A DNA stretch of 64,000 bases from an uncultured Gemmatimonadota bacterium (GCA_964509895.1 CAZDZJ010000119.1:817-64816), one strand, 5' to 3'. Shown: positions 721 through 21,799, counted from the first letter of the stretch. The notes: generated by a model not told the origin, from the sequence alone. Numbers and translations are program-made.

Positions 721-1515
721 ATGGCTGACACACTGATTCGATATGCGGCCGAGGACGGCGTCGCGGTCTTCACGATCGACGACCCGCCGGCGAACACATA
801 CACGTACGAGATGATGCACGACCTGGACGACGCGATCCTGCGCGCGCGTTTCGACGAAGACGTACACGTCATCGTCATCCGGGGCGAGGGAGACAGGTTC
901 TTCTCCGCCGGGGCGAACATCAAGATGCTCCAGACCTCGGACCCCTACTTCAAGTACTTCTTCTGCCTCCACGCCAACGAAACGCTGACCCGGCTCGAAC
1001 ACACGCCGAAGCTCGTGATCGGCGCCCTCAACGGGCACACGGTCGGGGGCGGCCTCGAGATCGCGCTCGCCTGCGACATCCGGATCGCGCGGAAGGACGC
1101 GGGGAAGATCGGGCTCCCGGAGGTGAATCTCGGCGTCCTCCCGGGGACCGGCGGGACGCAGCGGCTCGGCCGCCTGCTCGGGAAGCCGAAGGCGATCGAA
1201 CTGATGGCGGAGGGGCGGACGTTCGGGTTCGAGGAGGCGCTCGATCTGGGGCTCGTGAACAAGGTGTTCGAGGGAGATGACGCCTCGTTCCACGCGCAGG
1301 TCATCGAGTACGCACGGCAGTTCACGCCGCCGCACAAGGCGTCGCGCGCGGTGGGCCGCATCAAGCGGTCGGTGTGCAGCGGGGTCGAGGTTCCCTTCTC
1401 CGAGGGACTCGCGATCGAGCGCGAGCTGCAGCAGCTCCTCTTCCAGGGCGACGACGCGCGCGAGGGTCTCGCGGCCTACGTCGAGCGGCGCGCGCCCGAG
1501 TTCGCGGGCCGCTAG
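721..1515 (+). CDS. enoyl-CoA hydratase/isomerase (crotonase) family protein
   Basis: Starts at the internal ATG 721 of ORF 289-1515; the upstream part is Arg-rich junk overlapping the MFS gene. Sequence begins [27 protein letters not shown]. Crotonase segments present: [45 protein letters not shown]. Confidence 0.9.
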
Positions 1516-1559
1516 GAAGCGCGGATCGGGCCGGTGTGGCGAGCACGGGGAGCAGCCGG

Positions 1560-2780
1560 ATGAGCGGCGCGGATCGCACCCCGGTCATCATCGACGCCGT
1601 GCGCACGCCGGTGGGGCGCGCCGGCGGTGCGCTCTCGTCGATCCGGGCCGACGACCTCCTGGCCCATGCCATCCGCGCGCTCGTGGAGCGGACCGGGGTG
1701 CCGCCCGGCCGTATCGAGGACGTCATCGCCGGGTGCACGAACCAGGCCGGCGAGGACAACCGCAACGTGGCGCGGATGGCCGCGCTCCTGGCCGGACTCC
1801 CCGTCCAGGTGGCCGGCCAGACCGTGAACCGGCTCTGCGGCTCGGGGCTGCAGGCCGTCGTCACCGCGGCGCATGCGATCCGGGCCGGCGAAGGCGACGT
1901 GTTCATCGCCGGCGGCGTCGAGAGCATGTCGCGCGCGCCGTGGGTCATGCTCAAGACCGACCGGGCCTTCTCGCGCGTCCCGCCGAAGATCGCGGACACG
2001 ACCGTCGGGTGGCGCTTCGCGAACCCCTCCATGCCCGAACCGTGGACGATCCCGCTCGCCGAGACCGCGGAGGTGGTGGCCGAGGACCACGGCGTCGGCC
2101 GCGACGAGCAGGATGCCTTCGCCGTGGAGAGCCAGCGCCGCGCCGCCGCCGCGATCGAAGCGGGGCGCTTCGCCGAGGAGATCGTTCCCTTCGACGTCCC
2201 GCAGCGAAAGGGCGATCCCGTGCGTGTCGGGGACGATGAGCACCCCCGGCCGGGCACGACCGCCGAGCAGCTCGCGCGCCTGCGCGCGGCCTTTCGGGCC
2301 GATGGCACCGTGACCGCGGGCAACGCCTCCGGCATCAACGACGGGGCGGCCGCGGTCCTCATCGCGAGCCGGGCGGCCGCCGACGAACTGGGTCTCGAGC
2401 CGCTGGCCAGCGTGGGCGCCTCCGCGGTCGCCGGGGTGGAGCCGCAGCGCATGGGCATCGGACCCGTGCCCGCCACGCGAAAAGCCCTTGATCGCGCGGG
2501 ACTTGCGGTCGACGACCTCGACCTGGTCGAGCTGAACGAGGCGTTCGCCGCCCAGGCCCTCCCCTGCATCGCCGAACTGGGCCTCGATCCCGAGAGAGTG
2601 AACGTGAACGGGGGCGCGATCGCGCTCGGGCACCCGCTCGGCTGCACCGGCGCCAAGCTCCTCACGACGCTGGTCCACGAGATGCGGCGGCGCGACGCCG
2701 CCAACGGCCTCGTGACGATGTGCATCGGCGTCGGCCAGGGGATCGCCCTTCTCGTGCATCGCGACACGGAGGCGTCTTGA
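1560..2780 (+). CDS. acetyl-CoA C-acyltransferase (thiolase)
   Basis: Starts at ATG 1560 inside ORF 1374-2780. Sequence begins [23 protein letters not shown]. Active-site Cys context [19 protein letters not shown], and the C-terminal thiolase signature [17 protein letters not shown]. Confidence 0.92.
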
Positions 2781-3604
2781 GCGTCCCGCATGTCGTGCTG
2801 GAGGTCTCCGACCGGGTGGGAACGCTCACCCTCAACCGGCCGGAGAAACTCAACGCCTTCATCGGCGAGATGCGGACCGAGATCGCCGAGGGGATCGAGA
2901 CGCTCGCCGCCGATCAGGACGTGCGCGCGGTCATCATCACGGGTGCCGGGCGCGCCTTCTGCGCGGGCGCCGACGTCGGCTACCTCACGCATCTCATCGA
3001 GACGCAGGCCATCGACGAGGCCACCGCCCTGGTCGAGGCGGGGCGCCGGGTCGCGGGGGCCATCCGCAGGATGCCCAAGCCGGTGATCGCCGCGGTGAAC
3101 GGTCCGGCGGCGGGCGGCGGGGCGAACCTCGCCCTCTCGTGCGACCTGCGTCTCGCCTCCGAGACGGCGTCCATCGGACAGACGTTCAACCGGATCGGGC
3201 TTCATCCGGACTGGGGGGGCAGCTACGCCGTGCCTCGCCTCGTGGGTCCCGCGCGGGCCGCGGAACTCTTCTTCTTCGCGGAGATGATCCCGGCCGCCGA
3301 GTGCGAGCGCATCGGCCTCGTGAACCGGGTCGTTCCCGCCGCCGAACTCATGCCGCTCGCCCGCGAGTGGGCGCTCGAGCTGGCGCGCAAGCCCGTCCTT
3401 CCGCTCCGGCTGGCGAAGGCGGCGGTGCAGCGCTCCCTCTCCTCCAGCTTCGAGGAGATGCTCGACTACGAGATCGCCGCGCAGAAGGCCTGTTTCGAGT
3501 CGGCCGACGCGATCGAGGGAGTCCGGGCGTTCGTGGAGAAGCGGCCTCCGAGCTTCGGAGGCTCCGAGCAGCGATCGCAGACGGAGGTTGGAAAGCGTGT
3601 CTGA
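2777..3604 (+). CDS. enoyl-CoA hydratase/isomerase family protein
   Basis: TTG 2777 overlaps the thiolase stop (TTGA). Motifs: [52 protein letters not shown]. The exact start is uncertain. Confidence 0.85.
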
Positions 3605-4115
3605 GGGAGTCTCGGTTCGCCCGGCCCGGGTCGAAGACATCGACGAACTCGTCGCCATGTGGACCCGGTACATGAGGATCCACGCCCACAATCCCGCTTA
3701 CCGGCGGCTTCGGACGGACGCGATCGAAACGCGCGCCGGCATGTTCCGACGCCATATCGAGGAGGCCACGAGCGTCGTCTTCGTGCTGGAGGCGGAAGAT
3801 GGCGGCCTCGACGGCATGCTGGTCTGCTTCGTGGAGGAGAACGAGCCGCTCTTCGACCCGCCTCGCTACGTCCGCATTCAGACGCCTTTCGTTCGGCGCG
3901 AGGCGCGGCGGCGCGGGCACCTTCGGCGCCTGCTGGGCGCCGCCTTCGAGTGGGCGTCGGACTGGGACATCCATGAGGTGCGCCTCTTCACCGGTGCGGA
4001 CAACCTCATCGCCAACGCGCTGGCCGACGATCTGGGTTTCGAGGCGGTCGAGGTCGTGCGCCGCTATTCGCTCCGCCCCGAACCGGAAATGAACCCGGAG
4101 GATTGGCTCGAATGA
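3597..4115 (+). CDS. GNAT family N-acetyltransferase
   Basis: GTG 3597 lies 8 nt after GGAGG (3584-3588); TTG 3588 is an alternative. It overlaps the upstream stop. N-terminus VRPARVEDIDELVAMW, and an acetyl-CoA-binding-like segment RREARRRGHLRRLLGAAFEWA typical of the GNAT fold. Confidence 0.75.
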   Translation: MSEGVSVRPARVEDIDELVAMWTRYMRIHAHNPAYRRLRTDAIETRAGMFRRHIEEATSVVFVLEAEDGGLDGMLVCFVEENEPLFDPPRYVRIQTPFVRREARRRGHLRRLLGAAFEWASDWDIHEVRLFTGADNLIANALADDLGFEAVEVVRRYSLRPEPEMNPEDWLE

Positions 4116-4969
4116 GCGATCGCCCTTCCCTCGCGGTGCTCGGGGCCGGGACCATGGGTCACGGCATCGCCCAGGTCGCGGCGATGTCCGGCTACGAGAC
4201 CCGTCTCTTCGACATCATGCCCGAGGCGCTGGAGGCGGCCCGCGAGCGGATCGAGGCCAACCTCCGCAAGGGGATCCAGCGCGGGAAGGTGTCGTCCGGG
4301 GAGCGGGAGCGCACGCTCGCCGGGCTGACTTTCACCCGCTATCTGAGCGAAGCCGCCGACGGGGTCGGGATCGCGATCGAAGCCGTGCCGGAGAACCTGG
4401 ACCTCAAGCAGAAGGTCCTGTCGGCATGCGCCGAGGCGGCAGCGGACGACGCGGTGCTCGCCACGAACACGTCCGCCCTTTCCATCACCGCGATCGCAGA
4501 GCGCCTCCCGTCGCCGGAACGCGTGATCGGGATGCACTTCTTCAACCCCGTTCACATCATGGCGCTCGTCGAGGTCGTGCGCGGGGCGGAGACATCGGAC
4601 GACACCGTGGCGCGGGCCCGCGAGGCGGTCGAACGACTCGGGAAGACGCCGATCGTCATCGCGGACTCGCCCGGATTCGCCTCCTCGCGGCTGGGACTCG
4701 CGCTCGGGCTCGAGGCGATCCGGATGGTCGAGGAAGGCGTGGCAAGTCCCGAGGACATCGACACCGCGATGATGCTGGGCTACCGGCACCCCATGGGACC
4801 GCTGAAGCTCGGTGACCTCGTCGGACTCGACGTTCGGCTGGACATCGCCCGCTACCTGCACGAGGCGCTGGAGTCGCCCGTGTTCGAGCCGCCGGCCCTG
4901 CTCGAACGCATGGTTGCGGCGGGCCGCCTCGGCCGGAAGAGCGGCCGCGGCTTCTACCGCTGGGACTGA
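4112..4969 (+). CDS. 3-hydroxyacyl/3-hydroxybutyryl-CoA dehydrogenase
   Basis: ATG 4112 overlaps the GNAT stop (ATGA). Rossmann motif LAVLGAGTMGHGIAQVAA, plus FFNPVHIMALVEV and PGFASSRL. Confidence 0.92.
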   Translation: MSDRPSLAVLGAGTMGHGIAQVAAMSGYETRLFDIMPEALEAARERIEANLRKGIQRGKVSSGERERTLAGLTFTRYLSEAADGVGIAIEAVPENLDLKQKVLSACAEAAADDAVLATNTSALSITAIAERLPSPERVIGMHFFNPVHIMALVEVVRGAETSDDTVARAREAVERLGKTPIVIADSPGFASSRLGLALGLEAIRMVEEGVASPEDIDTAMMLGYRHPMGPLKLGDLVGLDVRLDIARYLHEALESPVFEPPALLERMVAAGRLGRKSGRGFYRWD

Positions 4970-5011
4970 TATTCTTAGCTGGGACTGAGAAACCGGAATC
5001 AGGAGAACCTC

Positions 5012-6367
5012 GTGAGCAACGTACGGACCGCCCCGCCGACGCCCTCCACGGACGTCCCCGATGCCGCCGCAGCCGCCGAACCCCGAAGCCGGGCCCTGAC
5101 GGCCGCGCACACCGACTACCTCTACCCCTGGGTCCGTCCCTACTACGGCAACCCGCTGGCGCTCGCCGAGGGGGATGGCGTCTGGCTCCGGGACGTGGAT
5201 GGCGACGAGTACCTGGATCTGTTCGCGGGCATCCTCACGACCTCGGTGGGCCACTGCAATCCGGTGGTCGTCGAGGCGGCGCGCGCGCAGATGGAGCGGC
5301 TGGGACACACCTCGGCGCTCTACGTGACGGAAGGCCAGATCGAGGCCGCCCGCTCGCTGGCGGAGATCACGCCGGGAGCCCTCCGGACGACCTGCTTCAC
5401 GAACAGCGGCACGGAGGCCGTGGAGTCGGCGATCGCGACCGCGCGCCTCTACACGGGCCGACACGAGATCGTCGCGCTGCGGCTCTCCTACTCGGGACGG
5501 AGCACGCTCACCAGCCACATGACGGCGCAGGGCGCCTGGCGTCTCCCCGGGGGAGGCGTCGACGGCGTCGTCCACACCCGGTCGCCGTATCCCTACCGGT
5601 CGCCCGTCGGCGCCGGGCCCGAGGCGACGGACTTCTTCATCGACGACCTCGTGGAAGTGATCGAAACGACGACCGGCGGCAAGCCGGCCGCCTTCTTCGC
5701 CGAGACGATCCAGGGCGTGGCGGGCGTCATCGTACCGCCTCCGGACTACTTCCGGCGCGCGGCCGACGTGATTCGGAGCTACGGCGGCCTCTTCATCATC
5801 GACGAGGTCCAGGCCGGGTTCGGAAGGACCGGGAACCACTGGTTCGGGATTGAACACTGGGGGGTCGAGCCGGACATCATGGTGATGGCGAAGGGGATCG
5901 CGAACGGGTTCCCGGTCGGGGCGACGGTCACGCGGCCCGAGATCGCCGAGGCCTGGCAGGGACCGTCCATTTCCACTTACGGGGGCAACTCGATTTCGAT
6001 GGCGGCGATGTGCGCGACGCTCGGCGTGATGAAGAGCGAGGACGTGCCGGCCCGCTCCGCCGAGCGGGGGGCGCAACTCCGCGCCGGGCTGGAGGCGCTG
6101 AAGAGCGCGTACGACTGGATCGGCGAGGTGCGCGGGATGGGACTCATGCAGGGAATCGAGATGGTCGGGGACCGCGCCGGGAAGGCGCCCGACGGCGGGC
6201 GGGCCGGGGCGCTGCTCGAGGCGGCGCGCGAGGAGCGCCTGCTCATCGGACGCGGCGGATCGAAGGGGCACGTGATCCGGATCGGTCCGTCGCTCCTCAT
6301 CACGGAAGGCGAGATGGAGGAGGGCATCCGCCGGCTCGGAGCCGCCTGCCGGCGGATCGACGGCTGA
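5012..6367 (+). CDS. class-III (AGXT2/beta-alanine-pyruvate-like) PLP aminotransferase
   Basis: GTG start at 5012. Motifs: FTNSGTEAVESAI, IIDEVQAGFGRTGNHWF, and MVMAKGIANGFP (PLP lysine). Confidence 0.9.
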   Translation: MSNVRTAPPTPSTDVPDAAAAAEPRSRALTAAHTDYLYPWVRPYYGNPLALAEGDGVWLRDVDGDEYLDLFAGILTTSVGHCNPVVVEAARAQMERLGHTSALYVTEGQIEAARSLAEITPGALRTTCFTNSGTEAVESAIATARLYTGRHEIVALRLSYSGRSTLTSHMTAQGAWRLPGGGVDGVVHTRSPYPYRSPVGAGPEATDFFIDDLVEVIETTTGGKPAAFFAETIQGVAGVIVPPPDYFRRAADVIRSYGGLFIIDEVQAGFGRTGNHWFGIEHWGVEPDIMVMAKGIANGFPVGATVTRPEIAEAWQGPSISTYGGNSISMAAMCATLGVMKSEDVPARSAERGAQLRAGLEALKSAYDWIGEVRGMGLMQGIEMVGDRAGKAPDGGRAGALLEAAREERLLIGRGGSKGHVIRIGPSLLITEGEMEEGIRRLGAACRRIDG

Positions 6368-6407
6368 CGGCACGCGTCCGCAGAGTTTGCCGGGAGAAAG
6401 CGACGCC

Positions 6408-7340
6408 GTGAACCGGCGGCTGGCCGGGCGCGTGGCGATAGTGACGGGCGCCGGCCGCGGGATCGGCCGGGCCCACGCGCTCGCGCTGGCGGCCGGCGGG
6501 GCGAGCGTCGTCGTCAACGACCTCGGCACGGGCGTCGGCGGCGAGGGTGCCGACAGCGGCCCGGCGCAATCCGTCTGCGCCGAGATCCGGGCCGGCGGCG
6601 GCCGAGCCGTGGCCAGCCGTCACGACGTCTCCGACTGGACCGCCGCCCGCGACCTCGTCGCCCTTGCGGTCGATGCCTTCGGGGGTCTCGACATCCTGGT
6701 CAACAACGCCGGCATCCTCCGCGACCGTGCCCTCTTCAACATGTCCGAAGACGAGTGGGACGCGGTCGTGGCCGTCCACCTCAAGGGCCACGCGGCGCCC
6801 AGCCGGCACGCGCTGGCGTGGTGGCGCGCCGAGGCCAAGGCGGGCCGCCCGCGCGCGGCCTCCGTCATTCACACCACGTCCTCTTCCGGATTGTGCGGCA
6901 ACTTCGGACAGGCGAACTACGGGGCCGCGAAGATGGGCGTCATCGGTCTCTCGAAGGTCCTTTCCATCGAGGGCGCCCCGTACGGCGTCCGCTCGAACGT
7001 GATCTCGCCCTCCGCGCGCACGCGCATGGTGGCCGGCATGACGGGAGCCGAACAACTCGGCGAGCCGGACGAGACCGGGTACGACCCGTTCGGACCCGAG
7101 CACATCGCCGTCGTGGCGGCGTGGCTGGCCGAGGCCGACTGCCCGGCGAGGAACCAGGTGTTCCACGTGTCCGGGCGGCGGGTGCGCGTCCTTGAAGTCC
7201 CGGGCATCGCCTTCGAGGCCACGTCGGAGCGCGACTTCACCCCGGCCGCGCTCGGCGGCGCGATTGGCGAGCGGCTCGTTGTTCCGTTGGACGCCTTCGA
7301 TCTGATCCTGGGCCGAAATCGGCCCGCAGCGGCGGGTTAG
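6408..7340 (+). CDS. SDR family oxidoreductase (MFE-2-type hydroxyacyl-CoA dehydrogenase-like)
   Basis: GTG 6408 with GGAG about 11 nt upstream; TTG 6387 is the ORF-track alternative. Motifs: VAIVTGAGRGIGRAHAL, NNAGI, and YGAAK (YxxxK). Confidence 0.85.
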   Translation: MNRRLAGRVAIVTGAGRGIGRAHALALAAGGASVVVNDLGTGVGGEGADSGPAQSVCAEIRAGGGRAVASRHDVSDWTAARDLVALAVDAFGGLDILVNNAGILRDRALFNMSEDEWDAVVAVHLKGHAAPSRHALAWWRAEAKAGRPRAASVIHTTSSSGLCGNFGQANYGAAKMGVIGLSKVLSIEGAPYGVRSNVISPSARTRMVAGMTGAEQLGEPDETGYDPFGPEHIAVVAAWLAEADCPARNQVFHVSGRRVRVLEVPGIAFEATSERDFTPAALGGAIGERLVVPLDAFDLILGRNRPAAAG

Positions 7341-7505: not shown

Positions 7506-7724
7506 ATGGCCGCTGAAGCTCGCCTCCGAGAACTCGTCGCCGAGCATCTGGACCTGGGTCGTGAACCGCAGTGGGACGGCGGGATCGCGGATTCAGGCAT
7601 CTCCTCGCTCGACGCCGTCGCCTTCAAGAAGGTCGTCGAGCAGGAATTCGGCGTCTCAATCCCCCCGGAGTGCTTTGACACGCTGCGCAAGCTGGCCGCG
7701 TACATCGACTCCCAGGCCGGCTGA
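7506..7724 (+). CDS. discrete acyl/peptidyl carrier protein
   Basis: 72 aa. The helix-II phosphopantetheine-site context IADSGISSLDAVAFKKVVEQEFGVSIP matches the carrier-protein pattern (G-x-D/S-S-L-D-x-V). Confidence 0.8.
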   Translation: MAAEARLRELVAEHLDLGREPQWDGGIADSGISSLDAVAFKKVVEQEFGVSIPPECFDTLRKLAAYIDSQAG

Positions 7725-7787
7725 ACGCACCTCACCGGCACTTGACCGCGCCCTCCCGGGCCGACCGGTTCGGGGGGGCGGGGTGAC

Positions 7788-8702
7788 ATGAGTTCCGGCA
7801 CCGTTTGGAGGTTACCGGAACCGCATTCCGTAGATGACGTCCGGCACGACGACGGCAGCGTCACCAGATTGCGACGACACGGGAACCCCCGGGGTCTCCG
7901 ACTGCTCGTGGGCCACGGCAACGGTCTCGCGGTCGACCTCTACTACCCGTTCTGGTCGCGGCTCCTGGACGACTTCGATGTATTCGTCTACGACCTGAGG
8001 AACCACGGGTGGAACGCCATCGGCCCGCGCAGCGGGCACAACGTCCCCAACCTGATCCAGGACCAGGAACAGGTCGTCGAGGCTCTGGCCGCGCGTTACG
8101 GCCGGGCGCCCACGATCGGGGTCTTCCACTCCCTGTCGGCGCTTACGGCACTCCTCTCCGATTCGCTCGGCACCGGCCGCACTGGCGATCTGTCGGCCTG
8201 GATCCTCTTCGATCCGCCGCTCTACAAGCCGAGGCTGGGCGAGGCCGAGTTCGACAAGTCCGCCGACAGGTCCGCGGAACTCGCGCGGCGCCGCACGGAT
8301 CGGTTCGGCAAGGAGGCCGAGTTCTCGGAACTCCTCCATCACCTGGTGCTGACGCGGGCCGTGCCCGGTGCCGCGGACCTGATGGCCAGCACCGTCCTGC
8401 GGAAGTCGGCGGACGGTGAGAGCGTCGAGCTTCGGTGCCCCCGCGAATACGAGGCTCAGATCTTCTCGTACGCGCGCACCTACGCCTTCCTCGTGGATCT
8501 CGGAGATCTGCCGTGCCCGACCAAGGTCATCGGATCGGATCCCACGATGACGTTCGCATACATGCCGAGCTTCAACCTCAGTCACATCAACACGGTCGAC
8601 TACGACTTCATCCCGGAATCCACGCACTTCCTCCAGGTGGAGCATCCGAGGGAGTGCGCCGACCTGATGCGCGCCTTCCTCGAGGAACACGGCCTCCTGT
8701 AG
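7788..8702 (+). CDS. alpha/beta hydrolase
   Basis: Oxyanion HG motif LLVGHGNG, nucleophile elbow variant GVFHSLSA, and C-terminal catalytic His context PESTHFLQVEHP. Convergent with the permease gene. Confidence 0.75.
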   Translation: MSSGTVWRLPEPHSVDDVRHDDGSVTRLRRHGNPRGLRLLVGHGNGLAVDLYYPFWSRLLDDFDVFVYDLRNHGWNAIGPRSGHNVPNLIQDQEQVVEALAARYGRAPTIGVFHSLSALTALLSDSLGTGRTGDLSAWILFDPPLYKPRLGEAEFDKSADRSAELARRRTDRFGKEAEFSELLHHLVLTRAVPGAADLMASTVLRKSADGESVELRCPREYEAQIFSYARTYAFLVDLGDLPCPTKVIGSDPTMTFAYMPSFNLSHINTVDYDFIPESTHFLQVEHPRECADLMRAFLEEHGLL

Positions 8703-8736
8703 CCAGGCCTCCCGTCGCCGGGCCACGCGCCGCCCT

Positions 8737-10482
8737 CTATGGGACGGCGACTCTCACGGTGACGATGTCCGTGTCGTGGTACTGCTGATGGCGAACCGAC
8801 GAAGCGAGGTGGCGCAGGAGGCGCAGCGATACCTCGCTCTCCGCGGACGTCTCCCCGACCTCCCCGCTCAGCAGAGCGAGGCGATCCTGGAGGTTCTCGT
8901 CCCGCGGTGCGACCACGAATTCGAGCGCGACCTCATCCTTGTCGCGGTGCGCGGACATCACGAGCCGACGCCGGGAGCGATCGTCTCCGGACGGCTCCGG
9001 CCGGGCCAGCGAGAGCAGCGCCTCCTCGGCGGCGGCGTCCAGACGGTCCGCGACCTCCTCATCCAGGCCGGCTTTCGCGGCGAAGGGCGCGAGGAACTCC
9101 CGAATCCGCGGTAGCGCCGAGGGCCCGAATTCGGTTTCGATGCGGGCTCGCCGGGGTTCGGTCAGGCGAAGGAAGAGGGTGAGGGCGATGGCCGTGAAGC
9201 CGCCCGCGTTCATCCCGTTCGCCAGCAGACCTCCGGCGAAGGCGGACACCTGATCGGGAAGAATGAGCCCATACTGGAATCCAACCCCCGTCAGGAATGC
9301 GAGACCGACGACGATGCCGTCGCGGTAGCCGAGTCCGCCCTGCAGGATGATCCTGAGGCCGATCGCGAACAGCATCGCGAGGAGGACGGTCAGGTAACCC
9401 GCGAAGACCGGATCCGGGATCGCGAGCACGACCGCGAACGCCTTGGGCAGAAACGCGAAGGCGATGAAGGCGGCGCCGGCCGCCAGACCCACCCCCCGCG
9501 CCGCGACGCCGGTGAGCTGCGTCAACGGGACGCTCGTGGTGGTGGCGCTGCCGGGCACCGTCCCGGCGAGACCGGCGAGGAGGTTGCCGACGCCGTCCAC
9601 GGCCACCGCCCCCTGCACGGCCCGGAAATCGGTCGCGCGACCCGCGCGCCGCCACGACACCCGCTGGATCGCGACAGCGCTGCTCATCGTCCGGATGGCC
9701 GCGATCACGGCAACGAGCAGGAACGAAGGCAGGAGGGTCCAGAAGGCCGGCCCGAAGCCGAGGTCGAAGCCGGGCGGACGCGGGCGCGGCAGCGCGACCC
9801 AGGCCGCGTCGGCTATGCGCTCCACATCGTAGAGGCCGTGAAGGCCGGCGATGGCGGTACCGACGATCACGCCGATCACCGGTGCCCACAGGCGGAGCGC
9901 CCCCGTACCGCGCAGGGCGATGCAGCCGATCAGGATCATGGTTGCGAAGAAGCTGAGTGCGGTGCCCGGGGGCCCGCTGCCGCCGGGCGCGGTGGCAAGG
10001 AGCCCCGACACGAAGGGCAGCACCGTCACCGGGATCAGCATGATCACCGTACCGGAGACGGATGGGGTCAGAATCCGCTGGAAGAGAGACAGCCGCCACG
10101 AAAGCAGCAGCGGGATGACCGCGGCGACCGCGACGAGCGTGGCGAGAAGGGCCGGGCCGCCCTCGGTGAGCGCCATGATGCTCGCGGGGATGAACGCGCC
10201 GGAGGTGCCCATCAGGAGAACGTGCCCCGTACCGAAGCGCCCGGCCCGGACGGCTTGCAGCATCGTCGCCAGTCCGCAGGCCGTGACGGACGCCAGCACC
10301 GCCCAGGAGAGATACTCCTCGCGCACTCCCGCGGCGCGCATGACGACCAGCGGGATCAACACGATCGCCGCGATGTTCAGCACGGCGAGCTGCAGCCCGA
10401 CGCCGAGCGCCAGGGGCGTCGGGGCCTTCTCGTCCGGCTCGTAGCGGACGCCGGCCCGGCCGTCCGCCGCGGAGGCGCTCAA
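8737..10482 (-). CDS. NCS2/SulP-superfamily (xanthine/uracil-permease-like) transporter with a C-terminal RsbW-like degenerate GHKL domain
   Basis: The TTG start overlaps the PKS stop (TTGA, 10479-10482). It is the only start codon upstream of the conserved VRYEPDE segment shared with the paralog at 41519-43276. About 440 aa of TM helices (LALGVGLQLAVLNIAAIVLIPLVV, VDGVGNLLAGLAGTVPGS), then about 135 soluble aa ending SLRLLRHLASSVRHQQYHDTDIVTVRV. Confidence 0.8.
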   Translation of the reverse strand: MSASAADGRAGVRYEPDEKAPTPLALGVGLQLAVLNIAAIVLIPLVVMRAAGVREEYLSWAVLASVTACGLATMLQAVRAGRFGTGHVLLMGTSGAFIPASIMALTEGGPALLATLVAVAAVIPLLLSWRLSLFQRILTPSVSGTVIMLIPVTVLPFVSGLLATAPGGSGPPGTALSFFATMILIGCIALRGTGALRLWAPVIGVIVGTAIAGLHGLYDVERIADAAWVALPRPRPPGFDLGFGPAFWTLLPSFLLVAVIAAIRTMSSAVAIQRVSWRRAGRATDFRAVQGAVAVDGVGNLLAGLAGTVPGSATTTSVPLTQLTGVAARGVGLAAGAAFIAFAFLPKAFAVVLAIPDPVFAGYLTVLLAMLFAIGLRIILQGGLGYRDGIVVGLAFLTGVGFQYGLILPDQVSAFAGGLLANGMNAGGFTAIALTLFLRLTEPRRARIETEFGPSALPRIREFLAPFAAKAGLDEEVADRLDAAAEEALLSLARPEPSGDDRSRRRLVMSAHRDKDEVALEFVVAPRDENLQDRLALLSGEVGETSAESEVSLRLLRHLASSVRHQQYHDTDIVTVRVAVP

Positions 10483-13400
10483 GCCCCGGTCTCGATCCAG
10501 TGGCGTCGGCGCTGGAACGGATAACCGGGCAGCGCAATCCGGCGTCTCGTCTCACCGGCAAACAGGCCCACGAATGAGACCGGGAGCCCTGCCTCGTACG
10601 CTCTCGCCACGGCGACCGGGAACGGATGTTCGGCACCACCCCGTTCGTCGGGCCAGTCGCCGAGCGCCGCCGGGCCCGCGGACGAGGACGGCCCGATTTC
10701 GATCACGTGGTCGACACCGAGGTCCGCCAGCGCCCGGGAGGTACGGCCGCGATCTCCGCGCGCCGACGCCTGCTCGCGCCAGTAGGCACCGTCCGGTGCC
10801 CGCGCGGCATCCATCCGCCGGCCCGTCACCTGGCTGATGATCGCCATCGCAGGCGATGAGAGTCCCATCCCCTGCGCGGCGGCTTCCAGCTCTTCCAGTG
10901 GGTCGCTCTTCGGGTCGTCCGGATCGTCGCCCGGCATGGCGGCCGCCAGGCGCTGCTTCGGCCGGGCCATGGCGGCTCCCCTCGCCGCCGAGAGCCGCAG
11001 CCCGTCGTCCAGGCTGAAGATCCCGGCGACCCAGCCGGCGGCCAACTCGCCGACACCGTGTCCCGCCACCGCGCCGGGGCGGATGCCGGCGCTCGCCCAG
11101 AGCGCCGTGAGCGCGCAGCCCAGTGCGTAGGCGGCCGGCTGCGCCCACTCGGGATCCCGCAGCGTTCCCTGCGCGCCTGCGCGGCCGAACATCACGTCGA
11201 GAAGCGATGCCCCGTCACGTTCCTCCCCGAGCACCAGTTCACAGCGATCGAGGATGGCGCGCACGACCGGCTCCCGGTCGTACAGCTCCTCGCCCGACCC
11301 GTCCCGGGCGCCCTCCTCTCCGGCGAAGACGAAGGCCACCTTCGGAGCGGTGCCCGGCCCGGCGTCGCGGCGCCACTCGTCCTCGACCTCCCGCTCGGCG
11401 AGGACGCCCAGTCCCTCGCGGAGCGACGCGACATCGCGGAAAACGAGGCCGGCCCGGTGTGCGAGGTGAGACCGGCCGACGCCCGCCGTCCAGGCCATGT
11501 CCGCGAGCACCGAGGCCCCGGCGCCACCCTCGTCGGGCACCCCTTCCGGCGCCTCGCCAACGCGTCCCTCCAGCCACTCGAGGTACAGCCGCGCCAGCTC
11601 CCTCAACGCCCGGGGCGACTTCGCCGAAAGAGGCAGAAGGCGCGTCTCCCGGGGTCCGGCATCGCCGGCGAGCGGCGGCCATCCCTCCGACTCGGGAAGG
11701 GCGAGCGGAACCGTGACCCCGGGGCCCGCAGGCATCCGGGCTCCGTTCAGGATCGAAGCGCGGTCCGGCCCGCCGTTCCCCTCGACGACGACGTGCGCGT
11801 TCGTCCCCGAAATCCCGAACGAACTCACCCCTGCCCTGGGCGGACGATCGCCGTTCGACGGCCACGCCACGGCCTCGTCGGTGACCCGCACCGGGAGATC
11901 CTCCCAGGCCAGGTGGGGGTTCGGGTTGTGGAAGTGCAGCTGCTTCGGGATCCGGCCTTCGTTCATGGCGAGGACGGCCTTGATCAGGCTCGCGATCCCG
12001 GCCGCGCACTCGAGGTGGCCGATGTTCGTCTTCACCGAACCGATCAGGAGGGGCCGCTCCTCGTCGCGTCCCTCCCCGTAGACCGCCGCGGCCGCCTGCA
12101 CCTCGATCGGGTCGCCGAGATCGGAGCCCACCCCGTTCGCCTCGAGGTAGTCCACCGACGCCGGCGCCACGCCCGCCCGTGCGAGCGCCTCCTCGATCAC
12201 GCGTTCCTGGGCCGGCCCGTTGGGGACGGTGAGCCCCGCGCTGGTCCCGTTCTGGTTGACCGCGGATCCGCGGATCACACCCCAGATCCGGTCGCCGTCG
12301 GCCTTCGCATCGGCGAGCCGCTTGAGGACGACCACCCCGCAGCCCTCTCCGCGCACGAACCCGTCCGCCGCCGCATCGAAGCTGTGGCAGGTTCCACTCG
12401 CCGAGAGCAGCCCGACTTCCTTCATGAAGGTGGCCGTCTCGGGCCACAGGATCGCGTTGACGCCTCCGACGAGGGCCAGTTCCACTTCTCCCTGCCGGAC
12501 CGCGGCGGCGGCCTGGTGAACGGCCACGAGCGAGGAGGCGCACGCCATGTCGAGTGGGACCGCGGGCCCGGTGAGACCAAGGGCGAAGGAGATCCGGCCC
12601 GCGGTCACGCTCATCGTCGTCCCCAGGTATCCGTGTCCATGGCCCATGGCCGCGGCAAGGTCCCTGTAGTCTCCCGTCGTGACGCCCGCATAGACCCCCG
12701 TATTCGTGCCCTTCAGCCGCGCCGCATCCAGGCCGGCGTCCTCCAGTGCGTGCCACGTCGTCTCGAGCAGGAGACGCTGTCGCGGATCCATCATGCGCGC
12801 CTCGATCGGGGTGATCCCGAAGAAGCGCGCGTCGAACTTGTCGATATCCTCGAGGAACGCGCCGCGGCGCGAGTTGGGGTCCTCGGAGGCGGGATCCCCG
12901 GCCACGCCGTTCCACGGACCCGCGTCCCGGCGTCCGTCCGTGACCGCATCCACCCCGGCGTCGAGCTGGCGCCAGAAGGCGGCGAGGTCCGGCGCGCCGG
13001 GGAAGCGGCATGCCATGCCGACGATCGCGACGCCGTCGTCCTCGGCCTCCCCGGCACCGGCCGCCGAGTCTCCCACGGCCGGTTGGACCGGCGCCTCCGT
13101 GGCGGCTTCCGGCGTGGCGGCAGGCGCCTCGCCCCCTTCGCCGAGTGCCTCGGCCAGGTGCGCGGCGAGTTCGGCGATGTTGGGATAGTCGAACACCAGC
13201 GTGTTCGGCGCCGTGTACGTCCCGGCGAACGCCCGGTTCAGCCGGTTCCGCAGCTCCACGGCCATCAGCGAGTCCATCCCGAGATCGAAAAATCCCACGG
13301 TGGGAGCCGGGGCCGACGACAGCCTCAGGACAGCCTGAACCTCGCCCTGCACGAAAGAGACGAGGAGGTCCTGCCGCTCCGCCGCCAGCGTTCCGCGGAG

Positions 13401-16400
13401 TCGCGTGAGGACGTCCTCGGAGGACGAGGCGTCACCCGCCCGGGCCTCGGACGCCGCGGAGAGCAGGTCTTCGAGCATGGGCGGAGGGTCGTCGACGGCC
13501 TCCTCGAACACGTCCCAATCCATCGACATGACGACGGATGCCGTGGCGTCCTGCCGCACGAGCCGGTCGAACGCCCGCATGCCCTGCTGCGGGGTGAACC
13601 AGCGGCCTCCGAGGGCCGAGCGCTGCCGGTCGATCCGGTCGCGCTGTTCCGCGGCTTCCCCGATGTCCGACCAGGCACCCCAGGCGATGGCCTGCCCCGG
13701 GAGCCCCAGCGCGCGGCGGTGGCCGGCGAGCTGGTCCAGAAAGGCGTTCGCCGAGGCATGGTTCGCCTGGCCCGGATTCCCCATGACCCCGACGCGGCTC
13801 GAGAAGAGCGTGAAGAAGTCCAGGTCGAGGTCGCGCGTGGCGCCGTGCAGGTGCCAGGCACCGAGAATCTTGGGCCACAGCACGCGCTCGAAGCGCTCCC
13901 AGTTCTGGTTCGTGAGCGCGCCATCCGACAGCACGCCCACGCTGTGGATCACGCCGCCGAGCGGCGGCAGGTCGCGCTCGATGCGAGCGAGCATGCCGTC
14001 GATGGCGGCCTGGTCGGTCATGTCGGCCAACTCGACCTGGACCGTCACGCCGCGCTGCCGGAGCGCGCCGATGGCCTCTTCGGCCTCCGGATCCGGGTCC
14101 CGGCGGCCGTTCAGCACGACCGCGCCCGCGCCCCGCTCGGCGAGCCAGTTGGCCACGGCGATCCCGATCCCGCCCAGGCCACCCGTCACCAGGTAGCTCC
14201 GATCTCCCCGCAACCCGCCCCGCACGAGGGGCGGCGTTGTCACGACGATCTTCCCGAGGTGGCGGGCCGAGCGCATGAACGACAGCGCGGCGCCCGCTTC
14301 GGCCAGCGGCCACCGGCTGTGCACGATGGGCTCGATTTCGCCCGTCGAGAGCTGCTCCATCACCCCCCGCAGCACCCGCCCGACCCATGCCGGGTCGGTC
14401 TTCTTGAGCACATCCAGTTCGAGGATCCAGTACCCCACGTCAGGGCGCACGGCCGCCATCTCCTCCTCGGTGAGGATGTCGCGCCGGGCCATCTCGACGA
14501 AGCGGCCGCCTTCCCGGAGGCAGGCGAGGCTCGCGTCGATGAAGCCCTCGCTCGTGAGGCTGTTCAGGACCACGTCCACGCCCTCGCCACCCGTCGCCTC
14601 CAGGATCTCGTGCCCGAAGTCGGTCGTGCGGCTGTCGAACACGTGCTCGACGCCCAGCGAGCGCAGATACGCCTGCTTCGGGACGCTCGCCGTGGCGAAC
14701 ACCTCCGCCCCGGCTGCCTGCACGAGCTGGATCGCGGCCAAGCCCACGCCGCCCGCGCCCGCGTGGACGAGGACGCGCTCGCCCGCCTCCAGCCCGGACA
14801 ACTCGAAGGAGAGCGCCGCCGACACGTACGCGCTCGGCACCGTCGCCAGTCCGCTCACGGAGAAGCCATCCGGCGCGGGGGCGACCAGCTCCTCGTGCGT
14901 GATCATCTGCGGCCCGAAAGCTCCGAAGCCGAGACCCACGATGTGATCGCCGACCGAGACGGAAGACACTTCCGGGCCCACCTCGAGGATGTGGCCGCAC
15001 ATCTCCCGTCCGAGGAGGCCCTCCTCGATGAAGCCGAGCGACCGGAACACGTCCCAGAAATTCAGGCCGGAGGCCTCGACCGCGACGCGGACTTCATGCG
15101 GTTCCAGCGGCCGCGCGGGCAGGGGCTGCACGTACGGCCGGTCGAACACGCCCCCCGTGTCCGGCGCCAACACCCATTCCGTCTCCTCCGGGAACTCGAG
15201 GCGCTCGGCGCCGGCGCCCATGCGCACGAGACGCGCCACCTGACGGCTTCCACGCCGGTACGCGATGTGATTCTCGGGGTCCGGGTAGAGGAGTTCGTTG
15301 GCAAGATCCGGTTCCGCCGCCATCGAGCCCGGATCGAGGTCGAGCATGCGCGGCTCCAGGTGCGCGGCTTCCCGGGCCACCCCCTTGCCGAATCCCCACA
15401 CGGCGGCGCCAGCGAGTTCTCCGCCCCGCTCGCGCTCGAGGATCTGTGCCCCCCGGGTGATGAACCACACGCCCCTTTCGGGGGTCAGATCCGAATCGCC
15501 CACGCCCTGCACGAGCGCGAGCGCGCTCGCCACGGCACGTTCGACATCCGCCGCCATCTCCTCGGTCGTGGCGCGCTCCCCGTGCCCGTCCAGCGCCGCG
15601 AGGTGTACGGCGCCGCAGAACGGGACGTCCCCCGGCAGACTCTCGATCAGCGAGCGCCACGCCTCGCGGTCGCCCCCATCCGTCGCGCTCGCCACGACGA
15701 CGGTCTGGTTCCGCGCCCTCATCCGGGCGGCCAGCCTCTCCGCCACTCCTCCATCGTCCGCCGCGAGAACCCAGGCGCCGGCGGACTCGGTCACCTTCGC
15801 CGGGCCCTGCGCCACGATCACGCCCTTGTCGAGCTTCATGTCCGGATCGGACTCGTCCACGCCGAGGATCTCGACCGCCTCGAACCCCGCGTCGCCGAGG
15901 GCCTGCCGCCATACGCCGGGACCGGCCAGCGCGTGGTGCGGGCGGTAGTCGTCGGCGAAGCGCCACCAGCCGTCGAGCTGTCCGAACGTCAGGTCCATCC
16001 AGCCCAGGCCCGTGAGGTTCTCGAGCGCGACGATCTGCCCGGATGGCGCCATGAGGTCCCTGCAATGCCCGAGCGTCTCCTCCAGGTATCGCGTCGCGTG
16101 CAGCACGTTCGAGGCGATCATGAGGTCGTAGCCGTGGGCGTCGAAGCCCTGGGCGATGGGATCCTTCTCGATATCCAGGGGACGGTACTCGATGCATCCG
16201 CCGGCGTCGCCGAAGCGCGCCTCCGCCTCCGCGAAGAAACCGGCGGAGATGTCCGTGTACACGTAGTCGAACCGCCCTTCCGGAAGCTCCGGGAGTACCG
16301 ACGCGGTCGCCGACCCCGTCCCCGCCCCGACCTCGATCACGCGCAGGCGGCGGCCCTCGGGGAGCGCGGCGACCAGCGCCCGCACCGCCTCGGCCAGCAT

Positions 16401-19400
16401 CTCGTTGGCCGCTCGCGCGACGGGCGCCTTCAGGTACAGGTCGGCGGCCGTCGGTTCCCCGCTGCTGAACAGGAGCGTGAGGGGATCGGCGTCACCCCGG
16501 AGCGCATCGGCCAGTGCCATGCCCGAGCGACGGAAGAGGCCAACCTCCGTGAGGCCGTGCGCATGGCGGCCGGCCATCTCGGTCGCGAACGCTTCGAGAT
16601 CCCGCGGCAGGTGCTCCGGCAACGGGTCGTCCGGGCCCACAAGGATGTGGAAGCCCTCGGCCGTCTCCTCCGCCACGCCGCACCAGTCGAGCATCTCGAA
16701 CATGCGGCGGAAGAGGCGTCCGTGTTCCGGGAGCACATCCAGCTTCTGCCGGAGTCGCTCCGGGTCCACCGTCTCCCCGGCCGTCCTGCGCCAGCCCAGA
16801 TCCTCGAGGGTCCGGAGGGCGCGGGCGTGCGACCAGCGCTCCAGATCGGCCAGGAGGGCGTTCCGGTCCTCCGGATCGACGCCCGCGTCCGTCAGGTAGC
16901 CCGCGAACAACTGCGCGCCCCCCGCGATGGCGGCGGGGCTCGGGAAGAAATCGGCGGGGTCGATCCCCTTCGGAAGGTCGCGTTCGCGCCACACGACCTC
17001 GTACAGCAGATCCTTGACCCCCTCGACCGCCGAGAGCAGCGCCTGCCGGGTGGCCCGCTTCACCGTGTAGCCGCTCAGGCGGCCGAGCGGCGTGCCGTCC
17101 GGATCGTAGATGCGGAGTTCGCCGCTCAGGACCTCCGCGGGCTCGCCCCCTTCGGCTTCCGCCTCACGCGAGGCTTCGCTCAGGCGGACGTGACAGACCA
17201 CCCGGTCGGGCAGCCGCCCGGCCAGCCACAGCCGCTCCCAGCCGAACGGGAGATACGTGGCGCCGCCCTCGCTTCCCGCCACGTTGCGGGCCACGCCCAC
17301 GGCCTGGAAGCAGCCGTCCAGCACGAGCGGATGCACGTCGAGTCCGTGCCCGGCCATCCCCTCCGGGAGCGAGACCTCGGCCACCGCCTCCCCCGGCCCG
17401 GACCACGCCCTCCCCAGCGTGCGGAAGGACGGACCGAGGTCGACGCCGGTGCTCGCCCGGTGGCGGTAGTATTCCGCCACTTCCACGCGGGAGAGATCGG
17501 CCTTGAGGCCCTCGAGGTCGGTGCGGCCGCCGTCTTCAGGGTCGGGAACGCCGACCGCCAGGCGGCCCTCCACGTGGACCGTCCACACGCCCCCGCTCCC
17601 CCGGCTGAAGATCTGGACGCCGCGCGGCGCGGTCGGATCGGGAGCATCGAGCACGACCTGCAGCGTCCGCCCCGCCGCGTCCGCTTCGCCCTCGTCCTCA
17701 TCGAAGACGAGCGGGTTGTGCAACTGCATCTCCTCGACGACGACCGATCCCCCCTCCTCGAGGAGGGACGCCGCTATCGTCATGGCCCCGTACAGCGCCC
17801 CGGGCGCCACGACGCGGCTGAACACCCGGTGGTCGTCCATCCAGGCCGGATCCGAGGGGAAGACCTCCGTCTCGAAGGTGATCTCGCCGCGCGCGGACTC
17901 ATGCCGCGCCCCGAGAAGCGGGTGCTCCGCGCCCCCGCGCCGGCGTTTCGGGAGGGCGATCCAGTGATGCTTCCGCTGGAACGGGTAGCTGGGCAGCGAG
18001 ATCCGGCGCGGCGCCTCTCCCGCGAACAACCCGGCGAAACGGATGGTGAGGCCCGCCTCGTATGCCTCGGCCACCGCCTCGGTAAAACCATCCGGGCCGC
18101 CGGAGCCCGGATCGTCCGGCGCGGGCGGGCGAAGGCTCGAGAGCACCACCGGCGCCCGCGACGACTCCGGCCAGGCCGAGGCCGCCATCGGGGCCAGCAC
18201 CGACCTCGGGCCGATTTCCAGCACGGCATCCACGCCGAGTTCCGCGAGCGCCTCCACCCCCTGGGCGAAGGCCACCGCCTCCCGGGCATGCCGCCGCCAG
18301 TAGGCCCCATCCAGCGTCTGACCCGGTTCCACGGCCCGGCCCGTCAGGTTGCTGACCACGGTGAGGGAGGGCGTTCCGATCGCGGCGCCCTCGAGGCACG
18401 CCTCCAGTTCATCCAGGATGGGTTCCACCAGGGCGCTGTGGAACGCCCGCTTCGTGTTGAGGCGCCTGACCCGGACGCCTTCCTCGTCCAGGCGCTTCGA
18501 GATGGTCTCGATGTCCGCGACCGGCCCGCTGACGACCTGGTGACTGCCGTTGTAGCCCGAGATGCCGAGCCCCGCACCGGAAGAACCCGCGTTCACCGCC
18601 TCGACCGCCGACGCCACCTGCTCGGGCGGGGCGAACACGGCGGCCATGGCGCCCTCCTCCATGCCCGACATCAGCGCGCCCCGCGTGGCCGCGAAGCGCA
18701 TGCCGTCTTCGAGGCTGAATACGCCCGCCGCCTGGGCCGCGGCGATCTCTCCGATGCTGTGGCCCACGACCACGGCGGGACGGACGCCGAGGCTCGACCA
18801 CAGCGCCGTCAGCGCGCACCCCAGGGCGTAGAGCGCCGGCTGCTCCCAGGCCGTATCGCCGAGATCCGCGCTTCCGCCGCCACGCCCGAACATGACGTCG
18901 AGCAGCGAGCTTCCCCGTTCCTCCAGGAACACCGCCTCGCAGCGGTCCAGGACGGCCCGGGCCACCGGCTCGCTCTCGTAGAGCGCCGCTCCCATGCCGG
19001 CCCACTGGCTGCCCTGCCCCGTGTAGGCGAAGGCCACGCGGGCCGGCGCGGCGGACGGCTCGCCCTCCTCCGTTGCGGCCAGCGCGCGGAGTCCTTCGCG
19101 CAACGTCTCCGCATCGCGGAAGACCACGCCCGCGCGATGGTCGAAGTGGCTCCGTCCCACGCCCGCCGTCCACGCCATGTCGGAGAGGAGCGGGTCCGAA
19201 GCGAGGTCGCCGGAAGAAAGTTCCCCCGCGTGCTCGTCCAGCCAGGACAGGTACCGCCCGGCGAGGTCGCGGAGCGCACCCCGGGACTTGCCGGACAGCG
19301 GAAGGACACGCGTCGTGCGGTGTTCGACCTCCGGCCCCGTCGATTCCGGCACGCCTCGCGCCATCGGAACCGGCACCGGAATCGCGGCGCCCGCGGCCCA

Positions 19401-20750: not shown

Positions 20751-20811
20751 GACAGATCCCCTTGCCGGCCGGCTTCCCCGAACCGGACATTGGTTGGCCA
20801 CAGAATGTGAT

Positions 20812-20831
20812 TGAAATATGTCCTGAAATAT
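20812..20831. promoter_or_regulatory. direct repeat TGAAATAT x2 in the divergent PKS/creatininase control region
   Basis: TGAAATAT occurs at 20812-20819 and 20824-20831 (12-bp period) in the only AT-rich stretch of the spacer. It is flanked by the inverted heptamers GTTGGCC (20793-20799) and GGCCAAC (20848-20854). Confidence 0.4.
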
Positions 20832-20887
20832 CGCGTCGTAGTAGTCCGGCCAACGCGGCCCGGCGAAGAGACGACAGGAGGAGGACG

Positions 20888-21799
20888 ATGATGCACGCCC
20901 GTTCGACTTTGACCACCCTGGTCGCCCTCATCGCGATCCCCCTCGCAGCCCCCGCCGGAGCCATGGGTCAGAACCGGGAGATGACGCCGGAGGAGCGCGC
21001 CCGGGTCATGGCCGAGTACGAAGCCCGGATCGACGCCGAACTCGTCTCCGAGCGGCCGATCGAGATGTTCGACTCGATCTGGATCGAGGAACTCACGTGG
21101 ATGGAAGTCCGCGACATGATGGCGGACGGCTACGACATCGCGATCATCTCCACCGGCGGGATCGAGCAGAACGGGCCCTACGTCGCGACGGGCAAGCACA
21201 ACTACGTGCTGCAGGGGACGTGCGAGGCGATCGCACGGGAACTGGGCAGCGCGCTCTGCGCGCCGATCATGAAGCTCGTTCCCGAGGGGAACATCGACGA
21301 ACCGTCGGGTCACATGCGCTACCCCGGCACGATCTCGCTCCGCCCGGAGACGTTCGAGGCCGTGCTCGATGACGTCGCCTCCAGCCTCCGGGCTCACGGC
21401 TTCGAGCACATCGTCTTCATCGGGGACAGCGGCGGGAACGTGCAGGGGATGGCAAACGTCGCGGCGCGCCTCAACGAGCGCTGGGACGACGCCCACGCCC
21501 ACCACATCCCCGAGTACTACCGTTACGGCGGCGGCGACTTCCTCGAGTCCGAACTCGGGATCGTGGAGACCGAGAACGACGGCATCCACGACAGCTTCGG
21601 GATCACGAGCCTGATGATGACCGTCGACCCGACCGTCGTCCGCTACGACCAGCGGGTGAAGGCGGGGCTGGCGAAGATCAACGGCGTCCCGATCGCCCCG
21701 AAGGAGAAGACGATCGAGATCGGCCTCAGGCTCCAGGCCTACCGGACCGCGCTTACCGTGAAGAAGATCCGCGAGTCGATCGCCAACGCGGGCGGATAG
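20888..21799 (+). CDS. creatininase (creatinine amidohydrolase) family hydrolase with signal peptide
   Basis: ATG 20888 is preceded by AGGAGGAGGA (20876-20885). Sec-type signal MMHARSTLTTLVALIAIPLAAPAGAMG. Creatininase-fold segments ISTGGIEQNGPY and FIGDSGGN. Confidence 0.85.
   Translation: MMHARSTLTTLVALIAIPLAAPAGAMGQNREMTPEERARVMAEYEARIDAELVSERPIEMFDSIWIEELTWMEVRDMMADGYDIAIISTGGIEQNGPYVATGKHNYVLQGTCEAIARELGSALCAPIMKLVPEGNIDEPSGHMRYPGTISLRPETFEAVLDDVASSLRAHGFEHIVFIGDSGGNVQGMANVAARLNERWDDAHAHHIPEYYRYGGGDFLESELGIVETENDGIHDSFGITSLMMTVDPTVVRYDQRVKAGLAKINGVPIAPKEKTIEIGLRLQAYRTALTVKKIRESIANAGG

Follow-up and report, generated by a model that had tools for sequence, protein, structure and literature searches.

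A conserved terminal ketosynthase beside a degenerate acyltransferase in a Sup-like polyketide synthase of an uncultured Gemmatimonadota bacterium

The Sup family and the ending of the window polyketide synthase

The Sup (sponge symbiont ubiquitous) gene cluster, reportedly first described by Fieseler et al. in 2007 with the genes supA-supE, is the described system that best fits the polyketide synthase (PKS) analyzed here, which is encoded on a 64,000-nucleotide stretch of DNA (the window; GCA_964509895.1 CAZDZJ010000119.1:817-64816) from an uncultured Gemmatimonadota bacterium. The window PKS ends in a second ketosynthase (KS) and acyltransferase (AT) didomain, KS2-AT2, located after the in-cis acyl carrier protein (ACP). 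A comparable position is occupied in the enacyloxin PKS, where, as reportedly demonstrated by Masschelein et al. in 2019, the chain is released by dual transacylation through a C-terminal non-elongating ketosynthase (KS0) and a stand-alone carrier protein. Off-loading in that system is said to be catalyzed by a nonribosomal peptide synthetase (NRPS) condensation domain, and its KS0 reportedly carries no AT remnant. The definition of KS0 domains in trans-AT PKSs is said to be that of Helfrich and Piel in 2016. For the window PKS, the reading that we favor by a modest margin of confidence is that KS2 and a free-standing, AcpP-like ACP together make up a split terminal module that lacks a working AT of its own, in which AT2 is a scaffold remnant.

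Surveys of PKS genes in sponge microbiomes are dominated by Sup-type genes (PMC4245539), and SUP clusters cross phyla within sponges (PMC9426513). The cluster is monomodular, dominates sponge metagenomes in a cross-phylum manner and has no established product (PMC4245539, PMC3908369, PMC9426513); methyl-branched fatty acids have been proposed in the literature. SupE was described as a permease (PMC3908369).

Translation, Pfam matches and motif positions define the window PKS as a single open reading frame (ORF) on the minus strand (10479-20801; stop codon at 10479-10481) that encodes 3440 aa. The Pfam matches, among them two KS and two AT domains, give the order KS1-AT1-DH-cMT-ER-KR-ACP1-KS2-AT2 (DH, dehydratase; cMT, C-methyltransferase; ER, enoylreductase; KR, ketoreductase), with one active AT and one set of reducing domains, and no loading module precedes KS1 in the translation. 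ACP1 (13146-13364, minus strand; approximately aa 2480-2552, with the Pfam PP-binding match at aa 2484-2549) carries Ser2510 within a GMDSLM motif, and the linker that connects it to KS2 measures about 35 aa, a length in keeping with assembly-line translocation. KS2 (11757-13040, minus strand; aa 2588-3015) is followed by a KS-to-AT linker domain (LLPLSAKS...DMAWTAGVGRSHLAHRAGLVFRD; 11337-11756, minus strand), by the AT2 remnant, of which only the large subdomain is left (10632-11336, minus strand; aa 3156-3390), and by a post-AT linker (AYEAGLPVSFVGLFAGETRRRIALPGYPFQRRRHWIETGA; 10482-10631, minus strand) that forms the protein end. Only 13 aa separate the YPFQR motif from the stop codon and no ACP follows AT2, so the didomain lacks the downstream in-protein ACP of a canonical cis-AT module. 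Together with an AT2 that appears dead (see below), this ending bears out, as far as a canonical elongating module with its own ACP is concerned, a preliminary description of the sequence, which had judged the didomain unlikely to be an elongating module.

A protein search with KS2-AT2 as the query returned thousands of matches, and a genome scan of GTDB with an AT2 profile recovered at least 570 relatives. Residues were counted in the best 120 proteins of the first search and in the best 78 loci of the second, where KS2 motifs could be scored by locus in 75 and KS1 motifs in 71; 60 of the 78 loci contained an uninterrupted ORF of 3350-3600 aa and served as the full-length set. With the exception of a few generic PKSs, the best 120 proteins terminate 9-24 residues past a YPFQR-like motif. 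The 60 full-length ORFs share an identical domain order, end directly after AT2 and all carry the equivalent of the ACP1 residue Ser2510. Judged from these alignments, the KS2-AT2 ending is a family-wide trait and not a peculiarity of the window gene, a point that the preliminary description had missed. The 78 loci come from about ten phyla overall, with hosts in Gemmatimonadota, Latescibacterota, Nitrospirales, Chloroflexota, Bryobacterales and other Acidobacteriota, Alpha- and Gammaproteobacteria, Thermodesulfobacteriota, Dadabacteria, Nitrospinaceae and Acidimicrobiia. With few exceptions, they are metagenome-assembled genomes (MAGs) with sponge-microbiome isolate names (e.g., SB06xx, APA, RHO, COS, IRC, TsSOB 'lac_sponge'), and the window itself is nearest to the Gemmatimonadota genus Candidatus Palauibacter, which is associated with sponges.

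Because of this sponge-MAG, multi-phylum pattern, the single fatty acid synthase (FAS)-like reducing module with a C-methyltransferase (KS-AT-DH-MT-ER-KR-ACP in Pfam order) and a permease gene coupled to that of the PKS, the family fits the Sup cluster, and the window protein would correspond to the published SupA, known from fosmid pAPKS18 and related clones. The wide spread among sponge bacteria is likewise shared with Sup, as the adjoining permease would be if it is of the SupE type, and the window set of PKS, ACP, hydrolase and permease genes is the one conserved in the 78 loci. The window PKS is, in other words, not a new kind of system. It adds a member from Gemmatimonadota to a family that is already known but biochemically unsolved, and one of its catalytic residues is a variant of parallel origin; it thereby offers handles on a long-standing question of sponge-symbiont chemistry.

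The terminal ketosynthase and its acyltransferase remnant

The acyl-binding residue of the window KS2 is Cys2754 in the motif DMACASS (codon 12540-12542), and the domain also retains Lys2924 (12030-12032) and the second His, His2929 in NIGHLE (12015-12017). At the position of the HGTGT His it has Asn2889, in EANGVGS (AAC at 12135-12137, minus strand), and Val2891 two residues later; the Cys-Asn-His motifs of the preliminary description were all recovered at their reported positions. Across the family, Cys and Lys are each present in 120/120 proteins and 75/75 loci, the second His in 118/120 and 74/75, and the first His in 117/120 and 71/75, which makes Cys-His-His the typical state. The HGTGT motif of KS1 is invariant (71/71), whereas that of KS2 is looser (H-[G/A]-x-G-S). 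As an observation apart, some subclades (L011, L041, L047, L063 and L066) read E[A/V]HATGS in KS2; an H-A-T-G pattern (HATGT) has been reported as unique to the KS of SwfA, from another sponge-specific family (PMC3908369).

We compared the constraint on each domain using mean pairwise identities from the 60 full-length proteins and dN/dS values for the window against a His-type sister (L001) and against its closest relative, an Asn-type sequence from Candidatus Palauibacter soopunensis (L079). In KS2, dN/dS was 0.098 against L001 and 0.089 against L079, at an identity of 0.67; the corresponding values for KS1 were 0.135, 0.126 and 0.71. The AT1 domain as a whole gave dN/dS values of 0.186 and 0.139, with an identity of 0.72 in its N-terminal core. 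For AT2, we obtained 0.20 and 0.16 in the N-terminal half (identity 0.64) and 0.48 and 0.30 in the remainder, the C-terminal part of which had an identity of 0.40, and the post-AT2 linker that follows returned to 0.048 and 0.080 (identity 0.715). Further, KS2 was the most similar enzymatic domain between the window and L079 (96.3% identical), with only ACP1 scoring higher (98.7%). Selection on KS2 is, hence, at least as strong as on KS1, also after the change from His to Asn. Taken with the conserved residues, these values indicate that KS2 is a working, strongly constrained ketosynthase.

In contrast to AT1, which retains its Gln, Ser, Arg and His in 60/60 full-length proteins, AT2 has lost most of its catalytic residues. 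In the window, the nucleophile Ser is replaced by Gly3249 (GHGVGE for GHSxGE; GGT at 11055-11057), GEEGARDGSG stands where GQGSQW is expected, and only 180 aa lie between the nucleophile elbow and YPFQR, compared with 259 aa in AT1. By alignment, the missing 79 aa correspond to the small subdomain and the AFHS histidine; the preliminary description had noted a shortening of about 80 residues and the lack of the xAFHS region. The remnant has neither the Ser-His dyad nor the GQGSQ loop of a canonical cis-AT, yet the Arg equivalent to FabD Arg117 (AARG) is still present in the window and in 44/60 relatives. The same losses recur in the family, with Ser replaced by Gly in 98/120 proteins and in 53/60 full-length ORFs, and the AFHS region deleted from 118/120 proteins. 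AT2 is, on this evidence, predicted to be catalytically dead throughout the family, in agreement with the preliminary description. Pfam profiles match both AT domains of the window PKS, as they do both KS domains.

Four lineages (L036, L039, L040 and L073) have dispensed with the AT2 body altogether. Their KS2 and KS-to-AT linker domain are fused straight to the post-AT linker and its YPFQRRR end, an arrangement shared with the KS and flanking subdomain of trans-AT PKSs. Of the AT2 region, only the two KS-packing linkers thus appear to be indispensable. An AlphaFold (AF2) model of KS2-AT2, made from an alignment of 66 sequences, was confident (predicted local distance difference test score, pLDDT, 87; predicted template modeling score, pTM, 0.90) and superposed on solved cis-AT KS-AT didomains. 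CurL (4mz0) was the top match, with a template modeling (TM) score of 0.79, and GfsA, Lsd14 and DEBS were also recovered. CurL 4mz0, DEBS module 5 (2hg4) and Lsd14 (7s6b) share the fold at TM scores of approximately 0.7-0.8 and 32-35% identity, but AT2 differs from these canonical didomains in having no Ser-His dyad, no small subdomain and no downstream in-cis ACP. Given that the residues are kept in AT1, the Ser is lost and the body deletable in AT2, and the model is confident, AT2 is best described as a folded scaffold remnant without catalytic equipment, the fold itself being the point on which the preliminary description had proposed a structural model. The sequences available would represent successive stages of AT2 loss. 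This sets the family apart from trans-AT PKSs, since it is of the cis-AT type, with an active AT1 and a KS2 that groups by fold with cis-AT didomains, and its AT loss has been caught at intermediate stages. In two other loci (L027 and L074) the last ~100 codons of the PKS are out of frame, and nonsense rich in Pro, Arg and Ser replaces the AYEAGL...YPFQR ending; a frameshift is probable, and it would reflect a faulty assembly or true decay of AT2 in these genomes.

The KS2 sequences formed one clade in 98/100 neighbour-joining bootstraps and the KS1 sequences another. Mean identities were about 70% among KS1 domains, 67% among KS2 domains and 57% between the two, and KS1 and KS2 from a single protein were no more alike (58%) than those from different proteins (57%). 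Because the two KS groups are separate and identity within a protein is no higher, any duplication of KS-AT predates the spread of the family, and the comparisons revealed neither gene conversion nor a recent copy. Of the second copy, only the AT seems to have decayed. An origin by intragenic duplication followed by decay, as the preliminary description proposed, holds to the extent that the duplication is ancient and the decay confined to the AT; a recent duplication private to this gene, and any decay of the KS, are contradicted. Nor do the near-identical linkers flanking the two modules attest to such an event, for they match the consensus of the whole family. Separately, a Bryobacterales sponge MAG (L050:2-19060) encodes a 6353-aa PKS with three KS domains that group near the KS1 and KS2 clades, and this possible multimodular relative could help to root the KS1/KS2 split.

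The Asn2889/Val2891 variant

The combination of Asn and Val in the window KS2 departs from the His and Ala of the family. Asn replaces the HGTGT His in 4/75 loci and 3/120 proteins, all from Gemmatimonadota and on three branches of the KS2 subtree, in which His-type sequences surround the window and L079. His and Asn are the only residues seen at this site. Each Asn-type KS2 also has Val for Ala at the +2 position (NGVGS or NSVGS), but over ~40 flanking residues in each direction it otherwise hardly differs from its His-type sisters. The window codons are GCG AAC GGG GTG, compared to GCG CAC GGG GCG in the sister L001, and in another locus (L004) AAC GGC GTC is found where relatives have CAT GGx GCC. 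As the Val codons differ (GTG from GCG in the window, GTC from GCC in L004), the evidence points to at least two independent origins of the paired His-to-Asn and Ala-to-Val changes within some Gemmatimonadota. We also considered gene conversion as the source of the pair but found it less likely than parallel point mutations, given the match of the flanks to the His-type sisters and the different Val codons.

A recurrent state with a compensating neighbor is what would be expected of a tolerated or selected alternative, unlike random decay. Further, the relaxed HGTGT motif of KS2 and the recurrence of Asn argue that the first His is less strictly required in KS2 than in KS1. The window KS2, in which the Cys is kept and the HGTGT His is lost, does have the motif of the KS0 domains of trans-AT PKSs, and the preliminary description had taken it as their hallmark. 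The motif fits, but the loss of elongation that was read from it does not follow, because the Asn is a minority state of parallel origin, is paired with Val and is under purifying selection (0.089). By themselves, the purifying selection and the paired substitution would indicate only that some function of KS2 persists.

We suggest, tentatively and at less than even odds, that Asn2889/Val2891 is a selected alternative active site of a type I KS that was reached in parallel at least twice, either as a condensing Cys-Asn-His triad or as a natural, repeatable switch by which an elongating terminal KS would become an enzyme of chain transfer only, altering the product by one C2 unit. We know of no description of a condensation-competent Cys-Asn-His triad in type I KS domains. 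If the Asn/Val state is selected, the Sup family would, together with its AT-loss series (full AT, then a Ser-less AT without the small subdomain, then no AT), show a cis-AT module becoming a trans-AT-like split module. The variants and the lineages without an AT body are, in effect, natural mutants with which to probe the roles of the first His and of the AT scaffold in a KS, and they illustrate how AT-less (trans-AT-like) and split modules may originate from cis-AT ancestors.

Partner genes and the proposed hand-over of the chain

Three genes next to the PKS recur in the family. The first encodes a free-standing, AcpP-like ACP (7506-7724, plus strand; 72 aa) with a Pfam match above threshold (PF00550, 38.6 bits) and a probable phosphopantetheine site at Ser34 (7605-7607) in the motif GISSLD; its nearest solved relatives are type II AcpPs. 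The second (7788-8702, plus strand) encodes a 304-aa alpha/beta-hydrolase (Pfam Abhydrolase_6), and the third (8737-10482, minus strand) a 581-aa permease of the NCS2/xanthine-uracil type (Pfam, NCBIfam), whose start overlaps the stop codon of the PKS, indicating translational coupling. Searches of the 78 loci with the window neighbors (tblastn) located the free ACP in 55, in many cases immediately after the PKS and on its strand, the hydrolase in 61 (48-87% identical to the window protein) and the permease in 39. A Sfp-type phosphopantetheinyl transferase (PPTase) gene was present in 35/78 loci, mostly between those for the ACP and the hydrolase. The ACP and hydrolase that the preliminary description had nominated as partners of the didomain are, therefore, real and co-conserved genes. 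The hydrolase family has strongly conserved motifs with a plausible Ser/Asp/His set; searches for solved structures and NCBIfam families returned no informative relative of it and no characterized close one. We regard it as the probable off-loading enzyme. The window permease probably corresponds to the published SupE, and its close relatives in the protein search are unnamed or generically named. We also tested whether the free ACP was a copy of ACP1 left by module duplication and found no detectable similarity between the two.

From the domain states, conservation, selection, synteny and fold described above, we infer a direction of chain flow, a partner and a chemistry for the split terminal module. 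Cys2754 of KS2 would accept the chain, fully reduced and C-methylated, from ACP1, and KS2 would then deliver it to the free ACP, where it would be processed or released by the hydrolase or type II fatty-acid enzymes. For Cys-His-His members we think it most likely that the hand-over adds one malonyl condensation, with the malonyl group loaded by AT1 or FabD, because Cys-His-His-Lys is complete in 95% of the members. The window KS2 may carry out the same condensation, with the Asn as a hydrogen-bond donor and the Val refilling the pocket; we consider this and a pure transacylation about equally probable.

Several observations weigh against this proposal. The relaxed motif of KS2, set against the invariant HGTGT of KS1, could mean that KS2 never condenses canonically, and the free ACP could instead deliver a starter unit to KS1. 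Moreover, none of the ATs in the cluster is dedicated to the free ACP, and the 64-kb window yielded no PPTase gene, another difference from the Sup cluster. The free ACP went undetected within the flanks of ~30% of the loci, and the hydrolase is missing beside some of them, including L009, L055, L014, L023 and L029.

The strongest alternative, which we rate as possible but clearly less probable than the split module, is that the window KS2 is a true KS0: condensation was lost in this lineage, KS2 does no more than move the finished chain from ACP1 onto the free ACP, and release follows through the hydrolase. The Asn at the HGTGT His, combined with the retained Cys and second His, matches the accepted definition of a KS0, and the relaxation of the KS2 motif is family-wide. 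As in the enacyloxin PKS, a C-terminal KS follows the last in-cis ACP, a stand-alone carrier protein is encoded nearby and a dedicated off-loading enzyme is available. The release enzyme conserved here is, however, an alpha/beta-hydrolase and not an NRPS condensation domain. The window KS also differs from the enacyloxin KS0 in its dead cis-AT, in the AcpP-like character of its partner and in having mostly relatives that are fully catalytic, with 95% of the orthologues keeping Cys-His-His-Lys alongside the same partners. The recurrence of the Asn, always with the change from Ala to Val, looks less like loss than like compensation within an active site. Among thiolase-fold enzymes, those with a Cys-His-Asn triad (FabH, chalcone synthase) are able to decarboxylate, which also counts against equating the Asn with a lost condensation.

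It seems unlikely that KS2 is instead a second iterative KS that works on ACP1 and the same reducing domains with another specificity (e.g., for longer or alpha-methyl chains), leaving the free ACP to another use such as starter delivery. Most KS2 domains do keep all of their catalytic residues, and the PKS has one active AT, one reducing set and no loading module ahead of KS1, as such a scheme would have it. But it leaves unexplained why the free ACP and the PPTase are so tightly associated with the PKS, often right beside it; a KS that follows an ACP, as KS2 follows ACP1, is the usual arrangement for downstream translocation; and the invariant HGTGT of KS1 against the relaxed motif of KS2 suggests different chemistries. 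Finally, a recent, decaying internal duplicate that survives as a vestige, or as a structural or dimerization element without catalysis, might be read from the 54% identity of KS1-AT1 and KS2-AT2 (over 700 aa; E = 0), their similar linkers and the loss from AT2 of the catalytic residues and ~79 aa, but it is effectively excluded by the selection on KS2 (dN/dS ~0.09), its invariant Cys and Lys, its separate clade, linker motifs that are family consensus, and a frame that is intact, at the same size, in 60 genomes of about ten phyla, where the preliminary description had expected frameshifts or absence of the region in the case of a pure vestige.

If the split module is correct, what has been called a monomodular PKS would be recast as a defined two-step system open to reconstitution. 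For Sup PKSs, our results add a terminal KS that behaves as a conserved catalytic unit, an AT that is dispensable to it, and a free AcpP-like ACP, a PPTase and a hydrolase as its likely partners.

Other genes around the window PKS are more variable. On the plus strand beside the free ACP (289-7340) are genes for an enoyl-CoA hydratase, a thiolase, a 3-hydroxyacyl-CoA dehydrogenase, a class III aminotransferase and a short-chain dehydrogenase/reductase (SDR), a block that may serve beta-oxidation-like metabolism with no relation to the PKS or be a set of tailoring genes particular to the lineage. We rejected the aminotransferase, SDR and beta-oxidation-like genes as partners of the PKS, since they accompany it in L079 and were found almost nowhere else, with none of the 78 other loci carrying them beside the PKS. 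The permease has a C-terminal extension (8752-9144, minus strand; aa 447-577) with weak matches to HATPase_c_2 and the RsbA anti-sigma factor; on the swf fosmid, a SupE-like permease adjoins the gene of an anti-anti-sigma factor (PMC3908369).

Two Candidatus Palauibacter loci differ from the window within the PKS gene. On the Candidatus Palauibacter soopunensis scaffold (L079:9940-10004), gene calling divided the PKS into genes of 2264 and 1175 aa, with a 4-nt overlap within the KR region, and the end of the first gene does not follow the reading frame of the window. The break is either a frameshift, from an assembly error or in a pseudogene, or a real split. In the second locus (L020, 827-16367, compared with 7506-23008 of the window), the flanking genes for the permease, a creatininase-like protein, an LPG-synthase-TM protein and the hydrolase are 79-87% identical to those of the window, and the ACP-hydrolase-permease block is inverted. 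Its Sup PKS is only ~65% identical to the window PKS over all domains, as distant as a PKS from Latescibacterota, which suggests a replacement of the PKS allele within a conserved locus.

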